Origin: Acidobacteriota bacterium
Lineage (GTDB): Bacteria; Acidobacteriota; Vicinamibacteria; Marinacidobacterales; SMYC01
Length of the DNA: 64,000 nucleotides
Direction: 5' to 3'
Assembly (NCBI GenBank): GCA_004356105.1
Contig: SMYC01000142.1
Span: 11,041 to 75,040 of the forward strand
Each line of letters starts with the position of its first letter. Within the stretch, counting starts at the first letter, position 1. The position numbers and the translations under genes are program-made. The notes under the pieces are model-generated. The model made no database searches. It worked only from the letters and a program-made list of their open reading frames with translations, and was not told the DNA's origin. Shown here piece after piece: positions 4,845-41,936 of the stretch.

Positions 4845-6923
4845 TCAGGCTTTGGCTTCTAGCTCTGCCTTACGTTCCGCGACGATCTTTTGAATTTGGT
4901 GCGCGGGCACTTCCTCGTAGTGGGAGAACTCCATGTGGAAAGCGCCTCGCCCGCCCGTCATCGATGTCAAAGCGGGCTCGTAGTTCAACATCTCCGCCAT
5001 GGGCACCTGCGCCTTGATGGAGGTGGCGTTGCCTTTCGTGTCCATTCCCTGAGTGCGCCCCCGGCGTGAGTTGAGGTCGCCCATCACATCTCCGGTACTC
5101 TCCTCCGGGACGGTGATTTCCACATCCATGATGGGCTCGAGAAGCGTGGGCTTGCATTTCTGCATCGCTTCTTTGAACGCCATCGAGCCCGCGATCTTGA
5201 AGGCCATTTCGGACGAATCCACCGCGTGGTATTTTCCATCGAAAACCGTAGCTTTGAAGTCGACCATCGGATAGCCGGCGAGAAAACCTTTGAGCCGGGC
5301 TTGCTGAATGCCTTTTTCTACCGCGGGGATGAACTGCCTGGGGATGGAGCCGCCAAAGACTTCGTTGCCGAACTGGAAGTCGGCGCCGGATTCGAGAGGC
5401 TCGAAGCGCACGTGGCAATCGGCGAACTGGCCGTGGCCGCCCGTTTGTTTCTTGTGCCGCGCATGCGCCTCGGCCGTCCCTTTGATGGTCTCGCGATACG
5501 GGACTTTCGGCGGATGAAGGTCGACTTCGACGCCGAATTTCTCTTTGAGGCGCGCAACGACGACCTCGATATGGAGCTGGCCCGTCCCGGAGAGAATGAG
5601 CTCACCGTCCCGACGGAAACGCAGCATGTTGTCCTCTTCGCCCATGCGCTGGAGCGCCTGGTTGATTTTTTCTTCATCGCCCCGAGACTTCGGCTCGATG
5701 GCGAAGCTGATGACGGGCTCGGGAAACACGACCTTCTTGAAGGTGATGGGAGCGGACTTGTCCGCGAGAGTGTCTCCGGTATGGCTATCCTTGAGCTTGG
5801 CGACCGAGCCGAGGTCCCCGGCTCGAATCTCATCGACAGGAACGGAGTCCTTGCCTTGCAAGAGCGCCAAGCCTCCGAGGCGCTCGGCCGATTCGGACGT
5901 CGTGTTCTGATACGAAGAGTCCGGCTTGAGAATGCCGCTCATGACCCTGAACAAACTGATGCGGCCCGCGAACGGGTCGGCAATGGTCTTGAAAATAAGA
6001 GCGCTTACCGGCTCTTCGCTCGAGATTTTGCGCGTGATTTCGTTGCCATCGGCGTCGAGGGCGTTGGTCTCGCCGCGCGCGTCCGGCGCCGGGCCGAGCT
6101 CGACGAGAGCGTTCATGAGCGGTTGCACCGCAATGTTGCGGGCGCCGGCACAGGCGAAGACTGGGTATACGTTGCCTGCGAGAATCGCTTGTTTCAAACC
6201 CGAAAGGAGCTCTTCCGCGCTCAACTCGCCCTGGTCGAAATATTTTTCCATCAAGGCATCGTCGCCCTCGGCGACCATCTCCACGAGCGTGCCATGCGCG
6301 GCCTCGACTTCGTCTTTCATCTCCGCGGGAACGTCCTGTTCTTTGAACGAGCCCTTTTCGCCGTCTTCGTAGATATAGGCGCGCATCCGCACGAGATCGA
6401 CGACGCCTTTGAAGTTACTTTCCTCCCCTACCGGAAGCTGGACAGGAACGGCCTCACGGCCAAACGCTTCTGTTACCGATTCGAACGACCGAGAAAAACT
6501 GGAACGATCGCGGTCGAGGCGGTTGATGACGATCATACGCGCGGGTCCGAACTCGTCCGCGAACTGCCAGACCTTTTCCGCCTGCACTTCGACCCCGCCG
6601 ACGCCGCAGATGTTGACGAGCATCGTGTCCGCCACTCGGAGGGCCAGGCGTGCCTCCTGGATGAAGTTGCCATATCCAGGCGTATCGAGAAGGTTGAGCT
6701 TCGTCTTGTTCCACTCGCAATGGGCGAGCGATGTGGACAGGCTGATTTGGCGCGCGATCTCATCCGCGTCGAAATCGGTCACGGTATTGCCGTCTTCGAC
6801 CTTGCCAAGGCGGTTGACGGCGCCAGCATCAAACAGCATTGCCGATGTCAGCGAAGTCTTTCCAGAGCCACCGTGCCCCACGATGGCAACGTTGCGGATA
6901 CCGGCAGTATCGTAGATCTTCAT
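4845..6923 (-). CDS. fusA: Elongation factor G paralog (EF-G2/EF-G II type)
   Basis: RNVAIVGHGGSGKT, LDTPG, NRLD, domain IV HKKQTGGHGQF, YHAVDSSEMAF; G2 region reads DEIARQISL instead of ERERGITI; start moved to ATG 6923 (GGAGG upstream). Confidence 0.92.
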   Translation of the reverse strand: MKIYDTAGIRNVAIVGHGGSGKTSLTSAMLFDAGAVNRLGKVEDGNTVTDFDADEIARQISLSTSLAHCEWNKTKLNLLDTPGYGNFIQEARLALRVADTMLVNICGVGGVEVQAEKVWQFADEFGPARMIVINRLDRDRSSFSRSFESVTEAFGREAVPVQLPVGEESNFKGVVDLVRMRAYIYEDGEKGSFKEQDVPAEMKDEVEAAHGTLVEMVAEGDDALMEKYFDQGELSAEELLSGLKQAILAGNVYPVFACAGARNIAVQPLMNALVELGPAPDARGETNALDADGNEITRKISSEEPVSALIFKTIADPFAGRISLFRVMSGILKPDSSYQNTTSESAERLGGLALLQGKDSVPVDEIRAGDLGSVAKLKDSHTGDTLADKSAPITFKKVVFPEPVISFAIEPKSRGDEEKINQALQRMGEEDNMLRFRRDGELILSGTGQLHIEVVVARLKEKFGVEVDLHPPKVPYRETIKGTAEAHARHKKQTGGHGQFADCHVRFEPLESGADFQFGNEVFGGSIPRQFIPAVEKGIQQARLKGFLAGYPMVDFKATVFDGKYHAVDSSEMAFKIAGSMAFKEAMQKCKPTLLEPIMDVEITVPEESTGDVMGDLNSRRGRTQGMDTKGNATSIKAQVPMAEMLNYEPALTSMTGGRGAFHMEFSHYEEVPAHQIQKIVAERKAELEAKA

Positions 6924-7024
6924 CGGGCCTCCGTCGGAATATAGAGGTAGGGTCGGCCCCACCACACGCCCTTCCCTCCCGTCGGGCGGGTGATCGGGTT
7001 CCCTCTCGGACTCCTGAGCCAAGA

Positions 7025-7068
7025 ATTATACCATCGGCCCCTCCGGGCAAGCCATATCAAACTATAAT
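7025..7068. promoter_or_regulatory. Back-to-back -10 boxes for fusA2 (minus strand, TGGTATAAT) and the pilM-like operon (plus strand, TATAAT)
   Basis: ATTATA at 7025-7030 (TATAAT on the minus strand with extended TG) and TATAAT at 7063-7068. Confidence 0.6.
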
Positions 7069-7104
7069 TGGGGTCTGTGCGGACGGCCGTCCCCCGATGG
7101 TGGG

Positions 7105-7135
7105 CCTGCCTCGCCGAAGCCTTGGCGAAGGCGGG
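7105..7135. repeat. REP-like imperfect palindrome CCTGCCTCGCCGAAGCCTTGGCGAAGGCGGG
   Basis: Self-complementary TCGCC...GGCGA core with GC-rich flanks; recalls the CCTTCGCCAAGGCTTCGGCG type of intergenic repeat. Confidence 0.55.
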
Positions 7136-7161
7136 GCGGCTCGGATCCGGCGCGAGCAGTT

Positions 7162-7995
7162 ATGTCGAGCTTTTTCTGGCCTTTCCAAAAGAAGCGCATT
7201 GGCCTCGCCTTTTCGGATCGTCTCGTCCTTGCCATATGCAACGGAGGGCCCCTCCAGATTGCAATGCGAGAGCTTCCCGTGGGGCTGATAGCGCCCTCCT
7301 CGGTTACCCCCAACATCCGCTCTGTCGCGGAGCTCGCCCAGCTAGCCGAAGACGCTCTAGGAGAGCTCGAAGCGCGCCGTGAAGGCGTTGTGGTTCTGTT
7401 GCCCGATCGTTCGATCGTGACAGCGCTCTACACCTCACGTCGGGGGGCTTCTGAAAAAGAGCTCAAGGTCGAGATGGGCGCGAAACTGGCCTTTCCGAGC
7501 ACGGAGGCCCGCTTCGATTTCTGGCGAGGGCGAGGTGGCGCGGTGCTCGGCGCCGCGGTCCGCGAGGCCGTGGCTGAGCAATACGAGCAGGTCGTCGAGG
7601 CCACGGATAGCCGGCTCGGTTGGGTGGATAGCACGAGCCTGGCCAGAATCCCTGCCTGGGCGCGACCGTCCGGCGGGAGCGGGCTCGACGTTCAGCTCCA
7701 GCTTTATGAGAACCACTACTGTCTGTCGGTCTTCGTCGAGGGGTCGCTCGTCGATTTGCGCATCAAGCTTCGGCCGGCGGGCATATTGGACGGCGTGCAG
7801 CGAGAAGTGACGCGCTTGCCAGCCCTTCACGGCGTTGCCTTGGGCGCCATCACCGTGCTCGGGGAAGGTGCCGCCGCGCTCGCGGCGGCCCTCGAAGAGA
7901 TCCCAGACGTCGGACGCGTTCACGTCGAGGACGACGGTGAGGAGCGTTTGCTGGCCTCGGCCCTGAAGGCCTTGCTGGAGCGTCCGCGGCCATGA
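7162..7995 (+). CDS. PilM/GspL-like cytoplasmic alignment-complex protein
   Basis: IGLAFSDRLVLA N-terminal strand, VVVLLPD, VLGAAVREAVAEQYEQVV, LGWVD pattern; coupled to the next two genes by ATGA overlaps. Confidence 0.6.
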   Translation: MSSFFWPFQKKRIGLAFSDRLVLAICNGGPLQIAMRELPVGLIAPSSVTPNIRSVAELAQLAEDALGELEARREGVVVLLPDRSIVTALYTSRRGASEKELKVEMGAKLAFPSTEARFDFWRGRGGAVLGAAVREAVAEQYEQVVEATDSRLGWVDSTSLARIPAWARPSGGSGLDVQLQLYENHYCLSVFVEGSLVDLRIKLRPAGILDGVQREVTRLPALHGVALGAITVLGEGAAALAAALEEIPDVGRVHVEDDGEERLLASALKALLERPRP

Positions 7996-31912: not shown

Positions 31913-33229
31913 ATGTCGGACCCGCCAGTGCCTCGTCTCGAGCTTCACATTCGCTCGCCCGAGATCACGCTCAAAGGAAGGAATCAAAGTGATTTCTGGT
32001 CTCAGCTTCGCGGGAACATCCGCCATACGCTCCGTAGCGAAGGCATCTCCTGGCCGATGCAGCGGCGACAAGGCCGTCTCTACGTGGAAGCGCAGGATTA
32101 CACCGAAGCGTCTCTGAAGTCTGCGGTGAGGACGATCGATCGAGTATGCGGGGTCCATTCTGTAGCCGTGGCTGAACGCCTCGCCCGCGACGAGCTCCTC
32201 CGCGATGGCGAGCTCGACCGTCCACGCGTCGAGTCCATCGTCGTCCGGCTCGCGCGTGAGAGCTATCGCGCTCAAAAGACCTTTGCTGTACGCGTGCATC
32301 GGGTCGACAAGAAATTTTTGTTGTCGTCGGCCGAGATGGAGCGCTGGCTAGGACAAGTGGTTCGGGATCGGACTGAATGGGAGCGCGTGCGGCTCGACGA
32401 CCCGGATATGACGATCCATGTGGACATCTACACCGACGCGGCTTTCTTCTACACCGAGCGACCGAGGGGCATCGGAGGGCTCCCGGTGGCTTCGAGCGGC
32501 CACGTCGTAAGCTTGCTTTCGGGCGGGATCGATTCCCCGGTCGCGTCTTTCCTGTTGGCTCGGCGAGGCTGCACCGTCGATTTTTTTCACATGAGCGCGA
32601 CCCACATGACGGAGGGAGAGCTCGAACGCTCGGTCCCCGGACGTCTCGCGCAAAAGCTCAGCCGCTTCACGTTGCGCTCGCGCCTCTTTGTCGTGCCCTA
32701 TACACATTTCGATCTTGCGCTCCGTGGAAAAAACACGGGTTATGAGACCGTGCTCTTTCGTCGTTTCCTCTTCCGGGTCGCGGAGGCGCTCGCTCTAAAA
32801 ACGCGAGCGATCGCGATCGTGACGGGGGATAGCCTTTCTCAAGTCGCGTCGCAGACGATCGAGAATCTTGTCTCCAGCGAAAAGGCTGTCGCCATCTCGG
32901 TGCTGCGTCCACTCTTGGCTATGGACAAGCAAGCGATCATGAAGGTCGCGGAGCAAATCGACACTTACGCGATTTCGATCGAGCCCTACAAAGATTGCTG
33001 CGCGCTCTTTACCCGACGCACCCGAACCAAGACCTATGACGAAGTCCTCACCCGGATGGAGACGAAACTGTTCCCGGATTACGAGGCATTAATCGCTTCT
33101 TCTCTCGCCGACATTCTTCGAGTGCAATATGACTGCGGAAAGCTTCTCTCGACCGAGCACGGTGTCGACGCGCTCGGGGCGGAGGCCGCGATAGAGGCGT
33201 CGCGGCTCGATAGTGTTTCCAAGAGCTGA
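31913..33229 (+). CDS. thiI: tRNA 4-thiouridine synthase ThiI (THUMP plus PP-loop, no rhodanese domain)
   Basis: TLKGRNQ, TFAVRVHRVDK, GIGGLPV, LLSGGIDSPVA, GDSLSQVASQT, RPLLAMDK, KDCC. Confidence 0.9.
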   Translation: MSDPPVPRLELHIRSPEITLKGRNQSDFWSQLRGNIRHTLRSEGISWPMQRRQGRLYVEAQDYTEASLKSAVRTIDRVCGVHSVAVAERLARDELLRDGELDRPRVESIVVRLARESYRAQKTFAVRVHRVDKKFLLSSAEMERWLGQVVRDRTEWERVRLDDPDMTIHVDIYTDAAFFYTERPRGIGGLPVASSGHVVSLLSGGIDSPVASFLLARRGCTVDFFHMSATHMTEGELERSVPGRLAQKLSRFTLRSRLFVVPYTHFDLALRGKNTGYETVLFRRFLFRVAEALALKTRAIAIVTGDSLSQVASQTIENLVSSEKAVAISVLRPLLAMDKQAIMKVAEQIDTYAISIEPYKDCCALFTRRTRTKTYDEVLTRMETKLFPDYEALIASSLADILRVQYDCGKLLSTEHGVDALGAEAAIEASRLDSVSKS

Positions 33230-33264
33230 CATCGCCGGTCGATATTGGAGATAATGCCGGAGCG

Positions 33265-33825
33265 ATGTCGCTTCTAGGGTTCGCCAAATGGCTCGCGGAG
33301 ACGCAGTGGAGCATAGCGCTTCACGAATCGCTTTGGGTCTATCCCCTCGTCGAATCCACCCATGTGTGGGCGCTGGCATTGTTCTTCGGCTTCGCGACGG
33401 TTCTGGATTTACGACTATTGAGCCTCGCTTTGACGCAGGTCCCGGTCTCTGAAGTAGCAAAAAGACTCTTGCCTTGGACGATCGCGGGTTTCATCGTGAT
33501 GATCGTCACCGGCGCGCTCCTGTTCTACGCGATCCCCGTCCGGACCTATCAGAGCATCTTCTTTCGAGTGAAGGTGTTCCTACTTATAGTCGCCGGCATC
33601 AATGTGTGGGTGTTTCACTCGACGATTTGGCTGCGCGTTGCTGAGTGGGATCGGGATCCCGTGACGCCTAAAAGGGCGCGATTTGCGGGTGCGGCCTCGC
33701 TCGTTCTCTGGGTGTGTATCATTTTCGCGGGGCGCATGATCGCCTATAATTGGTTCGACTGCGATCGGCAGCCGCAGCCCCCGATCGTCAACTGGGCGGC
33801 CGGATGCGTTGTGGAGCCGGAGTGA
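33265..33825 (+). CDS. DUF6644-like four-TM membrane protein (copy 1)
   Basis: ESLWVYPLVESTHVWAL, DLRLL, TGALLF, FRVK, IFAGRMIAY. Confidence 0.8.
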   Translation: MSLLGFAKWLAETQWSIALHESLWVYPLVESTHVWALALFFGFATVLDLRLLSLALTQVPVSEVAKRLLPWTIAGFIVMIVTGALLFYAIPVRTYQSIFFRVKVFLLIVAGINVWVFHSTIWLRVAEWDRDPVTPKRARFAGAASLVLWVCIIFAGRMIAYNWFDCDRQPQPPIVNWAAGCVVEPE

Positions 33826-34298
33826 TGCTTCTCCCGCTCTTCGAATGGTTCGAGCTCACGACGGTGGGCGAGATAATCCGTACTTCGACGTGGCTGTTTC
33901 CCTTCATCGAGGCGTTTCACCTCGTTGCCTTCGGAGTTGTCGGAGGCGCCGTGCTCCTCGTAGATCTCCGCCTGATTGGGCTTGCGTTTCGATCGCAACC
34001 CGTCGCGCAGGTTGCGCAGGAGATGAAACCGTGGCTGCAGCGAGGCGTAGCTGTTGCTGTCGTCTCCGGGAGCTTGCTCTTCGTCTCCGAATCCGTGAAG
34101 TGCTACTACAGCGAAGCGTTCTGGATAAAGATCACGGGCCTCTTCTTCGCACTCATCTTCACCTTTACGATTCGCCGCAAAGTATCGATGGCGGAAGCCG
34201 GAAGCATCGGCCCTGTCTGGGGCCGGGTCGTCGGTGTCGTTTCGATCGGGCTCTGGGCGACCGTCGCTTGGGGCGGACGCTGGATCGGCTTTTCCTAG
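33825..34298 (+). CDS. DUF6644-like four-TM membrane protein (copy 2)
   Basis: STWLFPFIEAFHLVA, DLRLIG, SGSLLF, FWIK, WGGRWIGF; ATG overlaps the stop of copy 1 (TGATG). Confidence 0.8.
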   Translation: MLLPLFEWFELTTVGEIIRTSTWLFPFIEAFHLVAFGVVGGAVLLVDLRLIGLAFRSQPVAQVAQEMKPWLQRGVAVAVVSGSLLFVSESVKCYYSEAFWIKITGLFFALIFTFTIRRKVSMAEAGSIGPVWGRVVGVVSIGLWATVAWGGRWIGFS

Positions 34299-34310
34299 CT
34301 TAGCTGCTCG

Positions 34311-34769
34311 CTAACGGTTGTTGGGCTTTTTCTTTTGCGGCGGCTCCTTGGGATCCGCTCCGTCCCGGGGTGCACCCGTGCCCGACGAGCCCAGGAAGAG
34401 CTTCCGTCCGTCCGGGAAAGTCACGTTGCGCCCGTTGGCCCGATTCGAGCGGTCTTTGCTTTGGTAGCCGTCGACGATGATCACCGTACCTGGCTTCAAC
34501 GAGTCCTTCGTGACGCCGCGTCTCAAGAGCGTGTTGGGCGTCCCTCCTTCGACCATCCACGACTCCGTCTTGCCGTCTTCGGTCGTCACGTCGAGGTGGA
34601 TCCAGGCATGCGGGTTGACCCACTCGACTTTCGTCACCGGCCCCTCCAATAAGACGGGCCGGTTGGGATCGAACTCTGCCCCGAAGGCGTGATGAGCCAC
34701 GACTGGCAGAGCCGCGGCGAGGAGTAAAGCGAATACCGCAAGGATGACGACGGCTAGTTTATCGCGCAT
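34311..34769 (-). CDS. DUF6152-like exported protein
   Basis: Signal peptide ending VVA, then HHAFGAEFD, EGPVTKVEWVNPHAWIHLDV, WMVEGGTPNTL, GW/GV...PG, DGYQ. Confidence 0.8.
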   Translation of the reverse strand: MRDKLAVVILAVFALLLAAALPVVAHHAFGAEFDPNRPVLLEGPVTKVEWVNPHAWIHLDVTTEDGKTESWMVEGGTPNTLLRRGVTKDSLKPGTVIIVDGYQSKDRSNRANGRNVTFPDGRKLFLGSSGTGAPRDGADPKEPPQKKKPNNR

Positions 34770-35830
34770 GGGTGCTTACCTCTTTTTTTCTCCTCGGCTT
34801 CGGCTTCGAGTAGCCGGGCGCCTCTGAGGATGTTTCCGAGAGCGTAATTGGCTTCGTGGCAGGCATATTCGTACATCGCGTCATCCGTCGCCACCCACGG
34901 ATATTCGCCGCTCCACGTTGTTTCCCAAGTTTCGGGATCGTGGATCGTGAACTGATAGAGGACCGTATTCTCGTCGACGCGCGTGAAGCGTTCCACCACG
35001 TGCAGGTTCTCTGAAGCGCCGCGGAATGCGGTCTTGTCGGTAAAGTTCGTCGTGTCCACGACGAGCGTGTCACCTTCCCAATGGCCGACCGAATCACCCA
35101 TCCACTTCCGGATCTCCTTCGGTGCGTGCTCTCGGTTCAAAGGGATGATGCGCGCGTCGTGAACCATCTCGACGAGGATGACGACGTAGTCCGGAGTCTG
35201 AACGATGCGCTTGAAGTTGTTGTAGAGCACGGGCAAGGAAGGCGGTCCTGACGAAGAGCCGAAAGCGAGCAAGCAGCGCTCGCCGAGCGGGCGCCCTTCG
35301 GGGTTGTCGTACGGGCCGGGCCCTGGCCGGTCGAGCCACCAGGCTTCGCCGGTGTTCTTCCCAAAAAGGCTGACCCAAGCGGCGCGCCGCTTCTTGCCAG
35401 CCGGGGTCATTTCCGGGACGCGGCCGTTTTTCGGCTCGACGATGATAGAGGTGCGGAATTTGCCCTCGAGCGTAAAGGCTTCGGTGCCCCGATCGATCCA
35501 GAAGTTGTTATATCCGCCCACGTTGCCGGCCGCGCCGGGCGAGCCGTCGCCGCCAAGCGGAGGCGCGTCGCGTTCCACCTCACTCGGCAGCGCGAGCCTC
35601 TCCGTGCGCGCGGCCTCTTTGGCGCGAATGGACTCCGCCTCTTCCGGGGTCAGGAGCAGTTTGTCGCCGAGCTCGACGGGCCGCTCCAGAGGCGTCAAGG
35701 TCGCCGTGTCGTACATTCCGGAGAGGTCCGGACGGCCGTCGGGGGTCCGAGGGATCTTCTTGGCTTCCTGAGGCAGTAATGCTTTGGCGACGACGAGTGC
35801 CGCGATCAGGAACGTGAGTCGAGCGCGCAT
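34754..35830 (-). CDS. Exported hypothetical protein (PRxxDGxPDLxG family)
   Basis: Signal peptide, PRTPDGRPDLSG, ERCL, WMGDSVGHWEGDTLVVDT, VVERFTR, YEYACHE. Confidence 0.85.
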   Translation of the reverse strand: MRARLTFLIAALVVAKALLPQEAKKIPRTPDGRPDLSGMYDTATLTPLERPVELGDKLLLTPEEAESIRAKEAARTERLALPSEVERDAPPLGGDGSPGAAGNVGGYNNFWIDRGTEAFTLEGKFRTSIIVEPKNGRVPEMTPAGKKRRAAWVSLFGKNTGEAWWLDRPGPGPYDNPEGRPLGERCLLAFGSSSGPPSLPVLYNNFKRIVQTPDYVVILVEMVHDARIIPLNREHAPKEIRKWMGDSVGHWEGDTLVVDTTNFTDKTAFRGASENLHVVERFTRVDENTVLYQFTIHDPETWETTWSGEYPWVATDDAMYEYACHEANYALGNILRGARLLEAEAEEKKRGKHPCAIN

Positions 35831-35846
35831 CGGCCTAGCTCCTCCA

Positions 35847-36698
35847 CTACCGGCTGAGCGGCGTCTTGCGGAACTCGCCGTACATCATCTCTTCGACGAA
35901 CTCGACGCACTTGAACTCCATCAACTGCGCGCTCGACTCGATCCGTCGATAGAGTGGCATGCTGATCTTCCACGGCCGCTCGAAGATTTTCGGGTCTTCG
36001 ATCGTGGCTTCGTACAGTAGGTGGTCAGGCCCGGTCCGCGTATAGCGCTCCACGACACGGAGCTCTTCACTGTGGAAATTCCCAGAGCGGTCGAACCACG
36101 TTTGGTCGTTCTGACCAGTGACCTCGACGACAAAGGTCTCGCCTTCCCAGTGTCCGACGGATTGCCCCATCCAGGAATCAATGGGCGGAGGTCCGGGGTC
36201 TTCGAGATAGATATCGCGCACGGCACCAGCATAGGTATAGGCGATGAAAAACGAGTTGTGGCTCTGAAAAATCTGGAAGGGGTAAGGCATATAGGTCGCC
36301 CGCGGAACACCCGGCAAGTAGCACTTGATCTCCGGGTCGCGGTCGAGCCAGTTCTCGCGATTTTCCTTTTGCTTCGCGAGCGCCGCGGGTTTGTACGGGA
36401 TCTCGCCGCCTTCGATCACCCCGAATCCGCCGGGCACAGCACCGACGGCACCGAGCGCGAGCACGCCGTCCGCGGGAACAGGGCGGACGGGGCCCTCGCG
36501 AAACGCCATGGCCGCGCGCGCCATATGGGTGGCGAGGTCGTAATGCGCCTCGTTGAGCGCCTGCCAAATGCCGTTCAAATCGGGATGCCCGTCCGCGGCG
36601 CGGGGTGCGGTGTAGGCGGGTCGCTCCTGTCCCGTTTCGGACGCCGCGGGAGCGTTTGGGGCGAGGGCGAGAAAGGCAAACCCCATCAACAAAGACAT
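35847..36698 (-). CDS. Exported hypothetical protein, paralog of 34754-35830
   Basis: PRAADGHPDLNG, KCYLPGVPR, WMGQSVGHWEGETFVVE, VVERYTR, MEFKCVE; AGGAGG RBS. Confidence 0.85.
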   Translation of the reverse strand: MSLLMGFAFLALAPNAPAASETGQERPAYTAPRAADGHPDLNGIWQALNEAHYDLATHMARAAMAFREGPVRPVPADGVLALGAVGAVPGGFGVIEGGEIPYKPAALAKQKENRENWLDRDPEIKCYLPGVPRATYMPYPFQIFQSHNSFFIAYTYAGAVRDIYLEDPGPPPIDSWMGQSVGHWEGETFVVEVTGQNDQTWFDRSGNFHSEELRVVERYTRTGPDHLLYEATIEDPKIFERPWKISMPLYRRIESSAQLMEFKCVEFVEEMMYGEFRKTPLSR

Positions 36699-36708
36699 CG
36701 GTCCTCCT

Positions 36709-36763
36709 GAATCACTGTGATTCGGCCGAAGGCTACTCTGACATCAGAGCGCCGGACCGTCAA
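36709..36763 (-). promoter_or_regulatory. Putative promoter (TTGACG-17-CAGAGT) with two palindromes
   Basis: GAATCAC-T-GTGATTC (36709-36723) abutting the RBS, and CTCTGA-CA-TCAGAG (36736-36749) overlapping the spacer and -10. Confidence 0.5.
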
Positions 36764-36797
36764 GGTGCCGGGTTTGCCCACGGCGCTAGACTGAATC

Positions 36798-37073
36798 ATG
36801 GCTCGGTTGGTGTTGGTCGCGGCTTTTGTCGCCTTCGTCGTCTGGCTCTTTTCGAGCTCTTTCATTTTTCGAATCGAGTTCAAGGGCGGCATCATCCAAT
36901 CGGTGCGCGGCAAGGTGGCTGGGCCGCTCCGACGCGGCTTCGAAGAGGTCGCCCGTCATGCGGGCATCACCGGCACGGTGTCGTTATATCCCGGCCGGAT
37001 CTTGAAATTTTCACGCGGCGTTCCCGCAGACGATCGGCAGCGCTTTCAAAACGTGTTGTCGTTCCTTCTTTGA
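36798..37073 (+). CDS. Small membrane-anchored protein, DUF3634-like
   Basis: N-terminal TM, FRIEFKGG...RGKV...FEEVA...ITGTV pattern. Confidence 0.6.
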   Translation: MARLVLVAAFVAFVVWLFSSSFIFRIEFKGGIIQSVRGKVAGPLRRGFEEVARHAGITGTVSLYPGRILKFSRGVPADDRQRFQNVLSFLL

Positions 37074-37075
37074 CG

Positions 37076-38590
37076 TCACTCCGCGCGCTCGTAGACTTCG
37101 ATCACAGGGTTTGCTTTCGCGATGTTTCCGAGGATGTTCTCGAAGTCGAGGAGCATGGCTCTCGGTTGCGACTGATGCTGAAGTGCGAGGCCGTAGCCCG
37201 CGCGCCCCGCCGAGAGCTTCGTGAACAGCTTGCCTTCGCGGGTGCCCGGTGCGAAGCGCGCAGCATATTCGGGATTGATGACGAGATAGTCGGGTCGTGA
37301 GCGCTCGAGAACCGACTCCGTCGGTCGGAGCCTCTTGGCGTTCAAACCGTCGAAACGCGGGAGGTAATATTCCGGCCCCATGAAACCCACGACCTCGCCG
37401 GGCTTCATATGCTCCTCGAGCCAATGCTCGACCGTATAACGCGAATCGTTGAGCAGCAATATGTCGACCGAGGCCGCGTAGAGAAAAGAGTACGCGAGCA
37501 CGGCGACGATACCAGCTCGATACCAACCTTTTGAAAGACTCCATAGGGTGGCCAGCGCGTGGCCGGCGAAAAGAGACAGGATGAGCACGAGAGGCAAGCT
37601 GTAGCGCAGCCACGTGCTGCGCACCGGCGCGATGAAGAAGATGTAATAAGAAAGTGCGGCGAGCACGAGCCAAAGCGGGAGTGGGTCTCCGTCTCGTTTC
37701 ACGAAAGCGAGCCACAACCCGCCGATACTCGCGAGCGTCAGAGGCCAGCCGAGCCCGAACTGGATGTGGCGAAGCGTTTGGAAGAGCAGGTCAAGCTGGC
37801 TGAGACCGTCGGCTTGGAACGCGCTGTAGTGACTTTGCGCCCAGAGGATTTCTTCGAAGTGGTGGACGAAGCCCCAGAAATTCAAGACGACGTTGTGGAT
37901 AGTGAGAAAGAGGATGAAGGCTATCGCCGCCGCGAGCATCGGGCCGCGTTCTACGAGCTTGCCGGTGCGGCGGAAGCGGAGAAATAGGTACGCGCTCACG
38001 GGGAGCACGTAGAACGCATAGGCCTGGTCTTTGGTGCACATCGCCAAGACGGCAACCGACGCGAACAGCCACAGGTCGCGTTGTTCTCCGAGCTTCCAGT
38101 GGCGCACGAAAAAATACAGGGACAACAGCACCCAAAAGGAGAGCGGAACGTCGAGATTGGCGAACTTGGCGTAGTACACGAAAGGCACCGTCAAGGCTGC
38201 GGCGAGACTAGCGAGAACCGCGGAGCGCCGGTCGAAAATCTCGATACCGATGCGGTAGAGCGTCAGCAATATCCCGACGCCCATCGCAAGAGAAAGAGCG
38301 CGCCCTAGATAGTAGAGAAGGGTCCGTCCCTCGACGCTCTCGACGTCGATGGCGTCGGCGGCAAGGAGAGGGATATAGGACGCGGCCAAAAGGTAGTAGT
38401 GAAGTGGAGGATAGGCAGGCTGATGCCAGTCGCCCGAGAAACGCTCCTCGATCCCCAAGAGAATGACGGGCGGCTGTAGCTCGTCGGTAGCCCACGCGAA
38501 TCGCGACGGCAGGCCCCAAGACACCGCCGTGAGGTTGAGACCTAGACTCAATGCAATGACCGCGAGAAAGATCACCCGATCGCGGATCAT
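37076..38590 (-). CDS. GT-C fold (ArnT/PMT, family 39-like) membrane glycosyltransferase
   Basis: WATDE in the first loop, YPPLHYY, GRALS, YYAKFANLD, LAMCTK, about 11 TM segments; start moved to ATG 38590. Confidence 0.8.
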   Translation of the reverse strand: MIRDRVIFLAVIALSLGLNLTAVSWGLPSRFAWATDELQPPVILLGIEERFSGDWHQPAYPPLHYYLLAASYIPLLAADAIDVESVEGRTLLYYLGRALSLAMGVGILLTLYRIGIEIFDRRSAVLASLAAALTVPFVYYAKFANLDVPLSFWVLLSLYFFVRHWKLGEQRDLWLFASVAVLAMCTKDQAYAFYVLPVSAYLFLRFRRTGKLVERGPMLAAAIAFILFLTIHNVVLNFWGFVHHFEEILWAQSHYSAFQADGLSQLDLLFQTLRHIQFGLGWPLTLASIGGLWLAFVKRDGDPLPLWLVLAALSYYIFFIAPVRSTWLRYSLPLVLILSLFAGHALATLWSLSKGWYRAGIVAVLAYSFLYAASVDILLLNDSRYTVEHWLEEHMKPGEVVGFMGPEYYLPRFDGLNAKRLRPTESVLERSRPDYLVINPEYAARFAPGTREGKLFTKLSAGRAGYGLALQHQSQPRAMLLDFENILGNIAKANPVIEVYERAE

Positions 38591-38866
38591 GGCGGGGACG
38601 TTATCATAGCTTCGCCGCACGGCGCGGGTCTCGGATTCAAAAGCGCTGAACAAACGAGCCCGGATACCGCCTCTGAGATCGGCGGCTACCTGAGATCTCG
38701 TCCTCGTGAACCGCGCATGCTGGTTCCTCGACCAGGATGTCAGTTTCACCTAAAATACATCTACGCCTTGTCATCCTAAAGGATCTGGTGCTGCGGTCGA
38801 TTAGGACGCTAGATTCAAAAATTCAAACTCAACATCCGTTTTTCTATTTCATTCGAGGAAAATCTC

Positions 38867-39313
38867 ATGGCAGAAGCTCAACTATTCAAGCCGTTGTCCA
38901 AACGATCCTTCTCGTCGAGGACAGCCCGGAGGACAAAGAAGCCATCATTCGTGCCTTCCGCAAAGCGGGCGTCGACAACAGCATCCACTGGTGCCCCGAT
39001 GGAGACAGCGCTCTCGACTACTTGAATCATCGGGGAGAGTACGCCGACGCTAGCAAAGCTCCTCGACCGGGGATAGTTTTGCTCGACCTCAACTTGCCGG
39101 GAACGGATGGGGGCGAGGTGCTTCGGGAGATCAAAACGAGCCCTGATCTTCGATATCGGTATGCCAGGTGGCGATGGCCACACGGTGGCGCGGCGCTTAC
39201 GTGACAACGTCAAGACGTGCAACGTACCGATCATCGCCCTCACGGCGAGAACGGCAGGGAGCGATCGGATCAAGGCGAAGGAGAACGGTGTCGTGAAATA
39301 TTTTACCAAACCG
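38867..39313 (+). pseudogene. Chimeric, out-of-frame response-regulator remnant (two different receiver halves)
   Basis: Frame A: TILLVEDSPED...IVLLDLNLPGTDG.EVLREIK, ending near 39151; frame B from 39143: LIFDIGMPGGDG...PIIALTA...KYFTKP; the RBS-linked ATG at 38867 is out of frame with fragment A. Confidence 0.7.
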
Positions 39314-39414
39314 ACCAACCAGCCCTGCGGCGGGAAGTCTCGGGCTTTCCAGCGCGCCCGTGCGTCTAGAGCGCTCGCGTCAAGCCAGGCATGGAAAATT
39401 AGCTCGTTGCCGGC

Positions 39415-39441
39415 TAAAGCCTTGGGCGATCTTACCGATAA
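39415..39441 (+). promoter_or_regulatory. Sigma28 (FliA/SigD) promoter TAAA-N15-ACCGATAA
   Basis: 11/12 match to TAAA-N15-GCCGATAA with exact spacing, upstream of cheA. Confidence 0.7.
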
Positions 39442-39632
39442 CTATTCTAGACTTTGTCCAATCCATCGTGAACAAACATGAAGAAACTCACGAAGCCCAA
39501 CGACGTGACCCTGCTGCGACGGCTAGCGCCGCAAGCTCTATCCACGATGTCCGGGCACAGTAATTTGCCGGTTGCCCGGGTCCAGTCCGAGCTAGACATC
39601 CATGGGGTCGCACCGGAGCAGGAGTTGCACGC

Positions 39633-41936
39633 ATGAACGACATGGACGAAGTGGTCAAGGAATTTCTGATCGAAAGCTACGAGAACCTTGACCAATTGGA
39701 TCGCGACTTGCTCGCTCTCGAGACAGACCCTTCTCACAAGGAGACTCTGGCCAGCGTCTTCAGGACGATTCATACGATCAAAGGCACTTGCGGGTTTCTG
39801 GGATTCTCGAAGCTGGAATCACTGAGCCACGTGGGTGAGAGTCTGCTGAGTCGACTCCGGGATGGCGAGCTCTTGCTGAATACCGAGATCACCAACGGTT
39901 TGTTGGCAATGGTGGACGCCGTGCGGGAAATGTTGGGCAAGATCGAATCCACGGAAGTCGAGGGTGACGGAGATTACCAATCACTGATAGAGCGACTGAC
40001 GAAGCTCCAGGAAGGCGAGGCGCCTGAGGCCGTGACGCCACCCGAGGCCACGGTGCCACCCGAGGCCACGGTGCCACCCGAGACCACGGCCCCATCCGAA
40101 TCGGTGGCGGAGCCTGGCACCGGAGGAAACGGCCCGCGTCGGATTGGCGAGTCCCCATTCGGGGAAAGAAAGCCCCGGGATGTCGTGGAACCCGCCGAAG
40201 TCCAAGCGGTCTCTGGGGGGCACGGCATATCGGAGAGTAACGTCCGAGTCGACGTTGAAATCTTGGACAGACTCATGAACCTGGTAGGGGAGCTGGTGCT
40301 GGCACGCAATCAGATTCTCCAGCTCAGCATGGACCAGGAGGACGCGCGTTACCAAGCGACTTCGCAGCAGCTGAATCTGCTTACCACCGAGCTTCAGGAA
40401 GGGGTCATGAAGACCCGCATGCAGCCTATCGGGAACGTGTGGGGGAAATTCCGCCGGATCGTCAGAGATCTGTCGATGGCTTGCGGCAAGAAGATTCGCC
40501 TCGAGATGGAAGGCGGGGAGACGGAAATCGACAAGACCATCATCGAGGCCATCAAGGATCCTCTCACCCACATCGTTCGGAACTCGGTCGATCATGGCAT
40601 CGAGACTCCCGACGCCCGTATAGCCGCCGGTAAGTCCCCGGAAGGGCACCTATACCTTCGCGCCTTCCACGAAGGCGGTCAAGTCAACATCGAGATTGCC
40701 GATGACGGCGCCGGCATCAATTTCGATCGAGTCAAAGAAAAGGCTATCCAGAACGGCATCACCACTCCCGAACAGGCCGCCCGCATGAGTGAGCGTGAGC
40801 TGGCCAACTTGGTCTTTCTTCCGGGGTTGTCCACGGCCAAGAAGGTGACGAACGTTTCCGGCCGAGGTGTGGGCATGGACGTCGTTAAAACCAACGTCGA
40901 GAAGATTGGTGGCACGATTGACATCCAAAGCAAGCTCGGGGAGGGGACGAAGCTCAAGATCAAGATTCCTCTCACCTTGGCGATCATTCCTGCTCTGACG
41001 ATAGGGAGCGGAGGGGACCGGTACGCCATACCACAAGTGAGCTTGGTGGAGCTCCTGCGGATTGACGGCGAGCAGGGTCGCAACCGCGTCGAGATGGTTC
41101 AAGGCGCTCCGGTCTATCGCTTGCGCGGCAAGCTGCTGCCGCTGGTCTACCTCAGCCAGATATTGGGAAAAAGCAATGGAGACGGCCAGCCGCAGAAAGG
41201 CAAAGTCGTCAACATCGTCGTTCTGCAGGCCGAAGGACGTCAGTTCGGTCTGGTTGTAGAAAATATTCGCGACACCGAAGAAATCGTCGTCAAACCGCTC
41301 GGCAACCTGTTGACGGGCCTGACGGTATATTCCGGCGCCACGATTATGGGCGACGGCACGGTGGCCCTGATCCTGGACGTTTTGGGCCTGGCCCAGCGCA
41401 GCCATGTGCTCTCCGAGGTTAGCGAACGCCGTTTGGCCCGTACCGATACCGAAACGGCGGCCGATGAAAGCGACCATCGCGCGCTGCTTGTCTTCGAGCT
41501 CGGCAAGGGCAGCCGGATGGCCATGCCGCTTTCGGCGGTTAGGAGGCTCGAGGAGATTCCCAAATCCAAGATCGAGCACACCACCGAGCACGACGTTGTG
41601 CAGTACAGAGGAGAGATCATGCCTCTGGTTTGGCTTTCCGACGTCTTGGGCCTGGGGAGGGATGAGACGGCCGAGGCGTCCGACGTGCTGCAAGTCGTCG
41701 TCTATTCCGAGAACGACCGCAGCGTCGGGCTTGTCGTGGCGCAAATCCTGGACGTCGTCAAGCAATCCATCACGGTCCAACGTGATTCCCAACGCGATGG
41801 CGTGTTGGGCTCGGTCGTCATCCAGGATCAAGTGACGGAGTTGCTCGATCTGGGCCGCATCATCCGTATGACCGGCTTGGGATTTTTAGATTCTGAGGTT
41901 TCTGAGCGGCCGCTCGCTGCCGCGGTAGGAGCGTAG
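39633..41936 (+). CDS. cheA: Chemotaxis histidine kinase CheA (HPt, dimerisation, HATPase, two CheW domains)
   Basis: FRTIHTIKG, LDRLMNLVGELV, HIVRNSVDHG, DDGAG, SGRGVGMDVV, IPLTLAII, EEIVVKPL; second CheW-like domain at the C-terminus. Confidence 0.95.
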   Translation: MNDMDEVVKEFLIESYENLDQLDRDLLALETDPSHKETLASVFRTIHTIKGTCGFLGFSKLESLSHVGESLLSRLRDGELLLNTEITNGLLAMVDAVREMLGKIESTEVEGDGDYQSLIERLTKLQEGEAPEAVTPPEATVPPEATVPPETTAPSESVAEPGTGGNGPRRIGESPFGERKPRDVVEPAEVQAVSGGHGISESNVRVDVEILDRLMNLVGELVLARNQILQLSMDQEDARYQATSQQLNLLTTELQEGVMKTRMQPIGNVWGKFRRIVRDLSMACGKKIRLEMEGGETEIDKTIIEAIKDPLTHIVRNSVDHGIETPDARIAAGKSPEGHLYLRAFHEGGQVNIEIADDGAGINFDRVKEKAIQNGITTPEQAARMSERELANLVFLPGLSTAKKVTNVSGRGVGMDVVKTNVEKIGGTIDIQSKLGEGTKLKIKIPLTLAIIPALTIGSGGDRYAIPQVSLVELLRIDGEQGRNRVEMVQGAPVYRLRGKLLPLVYLSQILGKSNGDGQPQKGKVVNIVVLQAEGRQFGLVVENIRDTEEIVVKPLGNLLTGLTVYSGATIMGDGTVALILDVLGLAQRSHVLSEVSERRLARTDTETAADESDHRALLVFELGKGSRMAMPLSAVRRLEEIPKSKIEHTTEHDVVQYRGEIMPLVWLSDVLGLGRDETAEASDVLQVVVYSENDRSVGLVVAQILDVVKQSITVQRDSQRDGVLGSVVIQDQVTELLDLGRIIRMTGLGFLDSEVSERPLAAAVGA
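40023..40094 (+). repeat. 18-bp coding tandem repeat (about 4 units, PEATVP) in the CheA linker
   Basis: CCCGAGGCCACGGTGCCA twice exactly plus two degenerate units. Confidence 0.85.

Follow-up and report, generated by a model that had tools for sequence, protein, structure and literature searches.

A five-gene DUF6152/DUF6644 envelope module in an acidobacterial genome and its possible part in periplasmic metal handling

Genes and protein families of the module

A stretch of 64,000 nucleotides from an Acidobacteriota genome (contig SMYC01000142.1, positions 11,041 to 75,040), hereafter the window, carries the five-gene envelope module that is the subject of this study. One strand encodes two paralogous membrane proteins of the DUF6644 family, and the other a small exported protein of the DUF6152 family together with two longer exported paralogs, ExpS and ExpL (Table 1). 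The TGA stop codon of DUF6644-A and the ATG start codon of DUF6644-B share one base in the string TGATG, as read in the sequence, and DUF6644-B is predicted to be translationally coupled to DUF6644-A through this overlap; orthologs of DUF6644-B start at the same MLLxxFEW. The stop codons of DUF6644-B and DUF6152 lie 12 bp apart, and the two units are convergent. In the second unit, a gap of 16 bp separates the end of ExpS from the start of ExpL, and the ExpL stop codon falls 16 nt inside the DUF6152 open reading frame (ORF), overlapping its start.

Table 1. Features of the module, with coordinates in the window. ExpL and ExpS are our own names for the exported proteins of 358 and 283 amino acids (aa).
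Feature	Position	Strand	Description
Sigma-70-like promoter candidate	33226-33255	+	CTGACA, 18 nt spacer, GATAAT; overlaps the end of thiI, just upstream of DUF6644-A
DUF6644-A	33265-33825	+	186 aa; four-helix inner-membrane protein; PF20349
DUF6644-B	33825-34298	+	157 aa; paralog of DUF6644-A; PF20349
DUF6152	34311-34769	-	152 aa; exported, modelled as an OB fold; PF19649
ExpL	34754-35830	-	358 aa; long exported paralog, unnamed barrel family
ExpS	35847-36698	-	283 aa; short exported paralog, unnamed barrel family

An earlier note on this DNA had described coupled membrane paralogs converging, at a distance of 12 bp, on an operon of exported proteins. The gene calls agree with this description, as do the paralogy scores: DUF6644-A and DUF6644-B are 31% identical (E 4e-23), and ExpL and ExpS are 37% identical across the C-terminal 126 aa that form the barrel (E 6e-20). 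Its family assignments are confirmed by Pfam, with scores of 45.4 bits (DUF6644-A) and 92.6 bits (DUF6644-B) for PF20349 and 111 bits for PF19649, against a gathering cut-off of 27 in each case, and every motif that it quoted (PRxxDGxPDLxG, ERC/KC, WMGxSVGHWEG, YACHE/FKCVE, VVA|HH, NPH and ExxH) is present in the sequence. The span that it gave to the module, 33265 to 36763, starts correctly and ends 65 bp too far, past the ExpS start codon at 36698. None of the five proteins has a match in NCBIfam.

The predicted signal cleavage site of DUF6152, VVA|HH, would leave His-His at the mature N-terminus. This arrangement is highly conserved: in 37 of the 38 DUF6152 sequences found by profile, His-His follows an alanine (33 sequences) or a glycine (4 sequences) at position -1 and a small or aliphatic residue at position -3. 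In the same 37 sequences, including the weakest members (32-45 bits), an NPH motif lies 20-35 residues past His-His. The claim made beforehand, that the His-His terminus and NPH are conserved, thus stands at the level of sequence. It is drawn solely from these 38 sequences, which were found by hidden Markov model (HMM). Our second sample, of 80 loci from Acidobacteriota, Gammaproteobacteria, Alphaproteobacteria, Gemmatimonadota and Actinomycetota (the cross-phylum sample), was collected by a scan with patterns that contained HH, so that His-His conservation within it would be circular. An alignment of 39 DUF6152 sequences gives H1, H2, N27, P28, H29, W46, E49, R58, G60 and G69 as invariant, and the second histidine of the WIH motif as not conserved.

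Mature DUF6152 was modelled by AlphaFold2 as an oligonucleotide/oligosaccharide-binding (OB) fold (predicted local distance difference test, pLDDT, 84), for which the best Foldseek matches are the OB folds of SSB, PriB and the anticodon-binding domain of LysRS. Its tail, GSSGTGAPRDGxDPTE, is invariant among close orthologs yet modelled at low confidence, and in this it resembles a docking motif. Sequence searches of the PDB with DUF6152 returned nothing meaningful, and the protein has no Pfam match to CopC or DUF1775.

Each DUF6644 protein has four transmembrane (TM) helices, a count derived from hydropathy and alignment, not from a structure. Across 25 aligned sequences the invariant residues are H33, G42, D48, R50, G83, K103 and R157. 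Lysine and arginine residues are concentrated in loops 1 and 3 (counts of 3.0 and 3.6), compared with 0.8 at the N-terminus, 1.2 in loop 2 and 0.04 at the C-terminus. These counts indicate an N-out/C-out topology, in which the half of the membrane that contains H33, K103 and R157 would be the periplasmic one. An ExxH motif in the first helix had been pointed out in both proteins; its histidine is conserved, but the glutamate varies in homologs, so that no conserved ExxH motif exists. Two relatives encode proteins of 343 aa that consist of two DUF6644 units and represent natural A-B fusions (L034:3733-4764 and L042:3843-4874), and the existence of such fused proteins supports a DUF6644-A/B heterodimer.

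A remote likeness connects DUF6644 with the copper transporter CopD. Aligned by hhalign with 21 CopD sequences, the DUF6644 family reaches a probability of 20% (E 1e-3, 104 columns), which is short of significance, and the alignment pairs H33, G42, G83 and K103 of DUF6644 with the CopD invariants H150, G159, G197 and K223. The DUF6644 ORF of one relative, which scores above its own family cut-off, also matches the CopD HMM at positions 3-100 of 105 (E 8e-4; 20 bits, cut-off 32). Divergent DUF6644 members match DUF2214. As a comparator we scanned another small four-TM protein, encoded by a relative, and it matches DUF4149, CopD and DUF2214 together. DUF6644 is therefore probably a split, remote member of a CopD-like superfamily, a placement that the alignments suggest and do not prove. 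The earlier description of the system as CopCD-like but non-homologous needs a corresponding revision: the CopC/CopD-like logic stands, and the supposed non-homology is probably wrong, the hhalign and HMM matches suggesting that the membrane pair is a remote homolog of CopD. Homology of DUF6644 to the HupE_UreJ_2 permeases was rejected (hhalign probability 0.4%), and a PDB search with the DUF6644 profile found nothing.

ExpS and ExpL have no Pfam match and no sequence-level match in the PDB, where a sequence search with ExpL likewise returned nothing meaningful. They nevertheless belong to a very large family, whose profile matches ExpL at 1.5e-58 and gathers 11,116 representative clusters at 50% identity (E<=1e-3), with members annotated as hypothetical only. 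ExpS comprises an N-terminal arm bearing PRxxDGxPDLxGIW, a conserved cysteine pair (C126 and C264) and a C-terminal beta-barrel. The near-invariant residues of the family alignment are the two cysteines and several arginine, tyrosine, tryptophan, aspartate and glutamate residues, with no histidine or methionine among them. C126 and C264 are likely to form a structural disulfide. In the AlphaFold2 model of ExpS (pLDDT 88.8; predicted TM-score 0.83), a well-packed N-terminal arm of about 100 residues precedes an antiparallel barrel and a terminal helix. The best Foldseek matches of the barrel are the cellular retinoic-acid-, cellular retinol- and fatty-acid-binding proteins (CRABP, CRBP and FABP), at the weak level of E 3e-3 and 11-16% identity, with TM-scores of 0.24-0.31 on the query and 0.41-0.55 on the target. 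The two exported paralogs had been proposed as disulfide- or metal-containing clients. The cysteine pair fits the first of these terms. The second finds no support in the alignment, where no metal ligands are conserved, and the barrels are unlikely clients of that kind; they more plausibly bind a ligand or dock a partner.

Distribution and partners in relatives

The three families occur together. In an even set of 251 genomes from the phylum, DUF6152 was found in 23 and DUF6644 in 26, with all 23 DUF6152 genomes among the latter (Fisher p 1e-29); the Exp family was found in 24 genomes, 21 of them shared with DUF6152 (Fisher p 2e-25). These p values are not corrected for phylogeny. The co-occurrence foreseen for the three families is thus observed. 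Gene order is also maintained: the phylum sample contains nine further loci, belonging to three or more families, at which ExpS, ExpL and DUF6152 converge on DUF6644-B and DUF6644-A, with the position of ExpL kept. Across the five groups of the cross-phylum sample, DUF6152 is 64-81% identical.

Linkage within the module is uneven. An Exp gene adjoins DUF6152 in 78 of the 80 cross-phylum loci, compared with 30 of 80 for DUF6644, which identifies Exp and DUF6152 as a tight core and the membrane pair as a frequent but looser component. Copy numbers agree with this view. The window's own genome carries a second ExpS-DUF6152 pair on another contig, with no membrane genes beside it, and four further ExpL-like genes.

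At the syntenic locus of a genus-mate, G251 (L137, G251:C1:3676000-3692000, at about 5660-7600), DUF6644-B could not be called and ExpL is split into two ORFs. Either the module is decaying there or the single-contig and probably long-read metagenome-assembled genome contains indel errors.

A further partner, absent from the window, adjoins DUF6644-A in most relatives: a protein of about 155 aa, a lipoprotein in most members, with an invariant methionine and a C-terminal CxxCH followed by tyrosine. Profile comparison identifies it as a class II cytochrome c (PDB cytochrome c', E 4e-6), and PF01322 matches 12 of 12 members weakly, below the Pfam cut-off. Its gene is present in 36 of the 80 cross-phylum loci and in g163, a different genus from the window's own bacterial family. 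No homolog was found in the window's own assembly of 6.77 Mb, which is 93% complete, nor is there one at the syntenic locus of G251; the window's genus has lost the cytochrome of the module.

In 11 of the 80 loci, all of them gammaproteobacterial, the module contains a HupE_UreJ_2 permease (PF13795) whose own signal peptide ends A|HN, so that its mature N-terminus would also be a histidine. Porticoccaceae possess both the DUF6644 pair and a pair formed by HupE_UreJ_2 and a membrane-anchored protein that bears HGWFWENR. In the gammaproteobacterial modules the permease gene is always adjoined by a family of about 190-220 aa that has no Pfam match, a single N-terminal TM helix and the motifs ILPAEFxxDPLGxG and HGWFWENR (seen in L044, L089, L092, L107, L114, L115, L121 and others). 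The window locus has no PF13795 gene. The sole HupE_UreJ_2-like ORF of its genome lies on another contig (C322:9121-10572; 101 bits against our profile) and is unlinked to the module, and the local ORF calls conflict.

Other neighbours of the module are heterogeneous. Pyrroloquinoline quinone (PQQ)-type propeller proteins are the commonest class, some of them with an N-terminal cytochrome c domain, followed by beta-lactamase-fold hydrolases, peptidases and dehydrogenases. At two loci of one acidobacterial family (L026:649-2466 and L029:722-2611), a protein of about 600-630 aa that joins an N-terminal cytochrome c to a PQQ-type beta-propeller is encoded directly upstream of ExpS on the same strand. 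TonB-dependent receptors were considered as regular neighbours and rejected, with CarboxypepD_reg or outer-membrane protein (OMP) barrel domains in 3 of 89 neighbours and not among the top families of two other samples. The partner account of the earlier note holds for the five genes of the window and is incomplete in three respects, having missed the class II cytochrome c, the HupE/UreJ-2 permease and the strong multiplication of the exported pair, with up to 19 DUF6152 copies per genome.

A possible metal-handling system, its parallels and its rivals

We propose, with doubt slightly outweighing confidence, that the module is a CopC/CopD-like system for metal capture and transfer, probably with a redox step. 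Signal peptidase would cut the exported DUF6152 after VVA. A metal-binding tip on the body of the OB fold would then be built from the new terminal amino group, the imidazole side chains of His1 and His2 and, probably, the NPH histidine or Glu49. DUF6152 would work one-to-one with the disulfide-stapled, FABP-like ExpS and ExpL of the same operon, which might hold an organic ligand or a metal chelate, or merely dock DUF6152. Metal would pass between DUF6152 and a DUF6644-A/B heterodimer, the split and distant relative of CopD, with its His, Lys and Arg in the periplasmic half of the membrane. That most relatives encode the class II cytochrome c next to the DUF6644 pair suggests that the metal changes its redox state at hand-over, for example from Cu(II) to Cu(I). 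Metal binding itself and the role of the barrels are parts of the scheme that we infer, as are the identity of the metal and the direction of its transfer. Copper would be the favoured and a plausible metal, with nickel, cobalt and iron also possible, and import would be the favoured direction of transfer, with the loading of periplasmic proteins as another possibility.

Four observations recommend a metal module: the location of the invariant His-His right at the point where signal peptidase would cut, the cluster of polar residues that the CopD-like membrane pair turns to the periplasm, the HupE/UreJ-2 permease in one lineage, and the published behaviour of other N-terminal-His proteins. With regard to the last, exported proteins with a conserved histidine right after the signal peptide have been described as metal binders (Franco Cairo et al. 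2025, PMC12537917). In that study the two domains fused to HupE/UreJ-2 permeases, Ang-1 and Ang-2, bound Cu2+ with a Kd of about 60-75 nM, and Ang-1 also bound Ni2+ with a Kd of about 220 nM; DUF4198 bound nickel and DUF6702 was described as a metal sequesterase. The authors propose that the N-terminal-His domains feed the permease. Neither DUF6152 nor DUF6644 is mentioned there. These anglerases resemble DUF6152 in the exported histidine right after the signal peptide, and the gammaproteobacterial modules place HupE_UreJ_2 beside DUF6152; they differ in having an immunoglobulin-like beta-sandwich domain fused to the permease, where DUF6152 is a free-standing OB fold and the window locus has no HupE/UreJ-2 gene.

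The general plan of the module recalls CopC-CopD, YobA-YebZ and YcnI-YcnJ, in which a small exported protein with an N-terminal histidine, the presumed ligand, is encoded beside a polytopic membrane protein bearing histidines. The likeness to CopD extends to the four invariant residues that coincide in hhalign and to the DUF6644 member that matches the CopD HMM. The differences are equally marked. CopC and YcnI are beta-sandwiches, whereas DUF6152 models as an OB fold; CopD is one eight-TM protein, whereas the module has two separate four-TM proteins that are fused only in the 343-aa forms of relatives; and the module adds to the CopC-CopD or YcnI-YcnJ scheme two obligatory barrel partners and, usually, a class II cytochrome c.

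CusF offers a second parallel. It is a periplasmic OB-fold chaperone for Cu(I) and Ag(I) that works with an efflux pump of the resistance-nodulation-division (RND) family and carries a conserved His and Trp on its beta2-beta3 hairpin. DUF6152 is likewise a small OB fold of the periplasm, in which the counterparts of these residues would be the NPH histidine (His29) and W46. Unlike CusF, it has N-terminal His-His in place of a Met-rich site and a CopD-like partner in place of an RND pump, and CusF was not among the top Foldseek matches of the DUF6152 model. The barrel of ExpS, C-terminal and antiparallel, resembles the calycins (FABP and CRABP, with siderocalin as a functional analogy) at the weak level given above; ExpS is distinguished from them by export, the disulfide staple, the N-terminal arm of about 100 residues and the C-terminal helix. 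The cytochrome of relatives shares its C-terminal CxxCH and N-terminal methionine with the class II cytochromes c (the fold of cytochrome c', c-556 and b562). It differs in a partnership with CopD-like membrane proteins for which there is no description, and it is missing from the window and its assembly.

Several findings weigh against metal capture and transfer. The CopD likeness is below significance, and the CopD HMM (PF05425) has no match on the two DUF6644 proteins of the window, even at E<=10. Nor does DUF6644 replace CopD in a complementary pattern, an idea rejected because CopD occurs in 14 of 23 module genomes compared with 39 of 228 others; the two co-occur positively. The strand order of the model indicates that the N-terminus of DUF6152 may lie far from the NPH loop in the monomer. 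DUF6152 genes number 11-19, and Exp genes 10 or more, in some genomes that have only 1-3 DUF6644 pairs, which would be unusual for metal uptake. The barrels lack conserved His, Met or free Cys, and metal handling leaves their role unexplained. Around the module we detected neither a metal-responsive riboswitch nor a regulator site that we could recognise. Finally, the cytochrome c partner and the PQQ-propeller and cytochrome c neighbours fit a redox enzyme system equally well.

Such a system, which we regard as possible but unlikely, would be a periplasmic redox or oxidative enzyme complex. The DUF6644 heterodimer would be its electron-transfer anchor in the membrane, the one invariant histidine of each subunit ligating haem b and the periplasmic-side Lys and Arg holding the propionates. 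Electrons would pass between this anchor and both the quinone pool and DUF6152, the latter exchange running by way of the class II cytochrome c. DUF6152 in turn would be a mononuclear copper subunit, redox-active or oxygen-activating and similar to a histidine brace, acting on varied organic substrates held by the barrels. Substrate variety would explain the many paralogous pairs, of which up to 19 share few membrane pairs, and would give the barrels a role that they do not have in a simple uptake scheme. The scheme would also accommodate the frequent cytochrome beside DUF6644-A, with its invariant Met and CxxCH, as well as PQQ-propellers as the commonest neighbours, some fused to cytochrome c, and the exported hydrolases and oxidoreductases. 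Haem b binding is pure conjecture, however, and the window's genome and its genus-mate keep the module with no cytochrome. The family alignment reveals no recognisable conserved catalytic residues in the barrels. Both the distant similarity to CopD and the presence of a HupE/UreJ-2 permease speak for ion handling. Furthermore, the N-terminal-His proteins characterised in PMC12537917 had no substantial oxidase or peroxidase activity.

A bolder proposal, to which we give somewhat less credence still, combines elements of both schemes. DUF6152 would found a new class of periplasmic metalloproteins, with a metal centre formed by N-terminal His-His on an OB fold. Paired one-to-one with the barrels, it would make up a large and varied family of periplasmic units that strip metal from, or oxidise, organic ligands held there. 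A shared split-CopD heterodimer and the class II cytochrome c, joined in some lineages by HupE/UreJ-2, would serve them all.

Delivery of metal outwards is improbable. By analogy with copper insertion by CtaG, PCuAC and Sco, the CopD-like pair and DUF6152 would load metal onto periplasmic proteins, either the Exp barrels or neighbouring enzymes. CopD-like membrane proteins do include oxidase copper-insertion factors, many neighbours of the module are periplasmic enzymes dependent on a metal or cofactor, and DUF6152 pairs more tightly with Exp than with DUF6644 (78 compared with 30 of the 80 loci). Against this, the Exp proteins have no conserved metal ligands, none of the neighbouring enzyme families accompanies the module consistently, and the HupE/UreJ-2 partner is of an import family. 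Least probable of all is a barrel-centred traffic in organic ligands, in which Exp proteins would ferry small molecules, hydrophobic or anionic, through the periplasm to DUF6644 as inner-membrane acceptor, with DUF6152 as a non-metal adaptor or lid. The FABP/CRABP-like barrel and its conserved Arg, Tyr and Trp would suit it, as would the huge size and many paralogs of the family, which varied ligands would lead one to expect. The fold match is weak (E 3e-3), however, and the scheme would leave unexplained the cytochrome c, the HupE/UreJ-2 permease, the CopD likeness and the invariant His-His placed exactly where signal peptidase would cut.

The module is abundant in bacteria of soil, sediment and seawater, with DUF6152 highly similar across five groups, and is built wholly from experimentally uncharacterised families, one of which numbers over 11,000 clusters at 50% identity and lacks a Pfam model. 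No paper mentions DUF6152, DUF6644, PF19649 or PF20349, and the earlier statement that the system has no functional description is accurate. A periplasmic N-terminal-His protein with a CopD-like partner is known in kind; the different folds and the extra obligatory components are new. If CopC/CopD-like metal transfer is the correct explanation, an OB fold with a His-His tip would be a third structural solution to N-terminal-His metal capture, after those of CopC, YcnI, lytic polysaccharide monooxygenases and anglerases. The DUF6644 pair would then be a minimal, split CopD-like form, perhaps easier to study, and metal hand-over would be tied to a dedicated cytochrome. Should the module instead serve redox chemistry, it would indicate that bacteria dominant in the environment possess a large family of periplasmic oxidative enzymes still to be explored, and a new class of metalloprotein would imply an envelope system of several components, coupled to redox chemistry and unlike any yet described.

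Flanks, regulation and environmental occurrence

Upstream of the membrane pair, thiI (31913-33229) ends 35 bp before DUF6644-A, with no gene between. The promoter candidate that overlaps its end matches 10 of 12 consensus positions, a consensus match only and hence weak evidence. Rfam models detected no riboswitch or other RNA between 33000 and 37300 at E<=1. On the opposite side, the region upstream of ExpS is 94% identical between the window and G251. It contains a perfect 7-1-7 palindrome, GAATCACTGTGATTC (36709-36723), which precedes the ExpS start codon by 11-25 nt and differs at two positions in G251; this palindrome could be an operator or could be meaningless.

The source assembly consists of 335 contigs and belongs to the class Vicinamibacteria. 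Near-identical DNA is present in metagenomes from the subsurface, marine sediment and seawater. Two marine-sediment runs labelled metatranscriptomic (X8 and X9) yield short contigs at 95-100% identity, about half of them at 99% or above, which cover all five genes (32800-37200). Their depth over the module is low and no greater than over the flanks, and carry-over of DNA is possible; these reads are compatible with expression in situ and establish nothing firm.

Two minor observations concern the DNA beyond ExpS. Between ExpS and a gene for a PMT_2-type glycosyltransferase, an ORF of 91 aa with an N-terminal hydrophobic segment (36798-37073, + strand) is kept at the same length in G251, where the stretch is 94% identical, and may be a real small membrane protein. 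Further on, two short, overlapping ORFs that resemble fragments of response regulators (38737-39481) precede a CheA-like gene (39633-41936).

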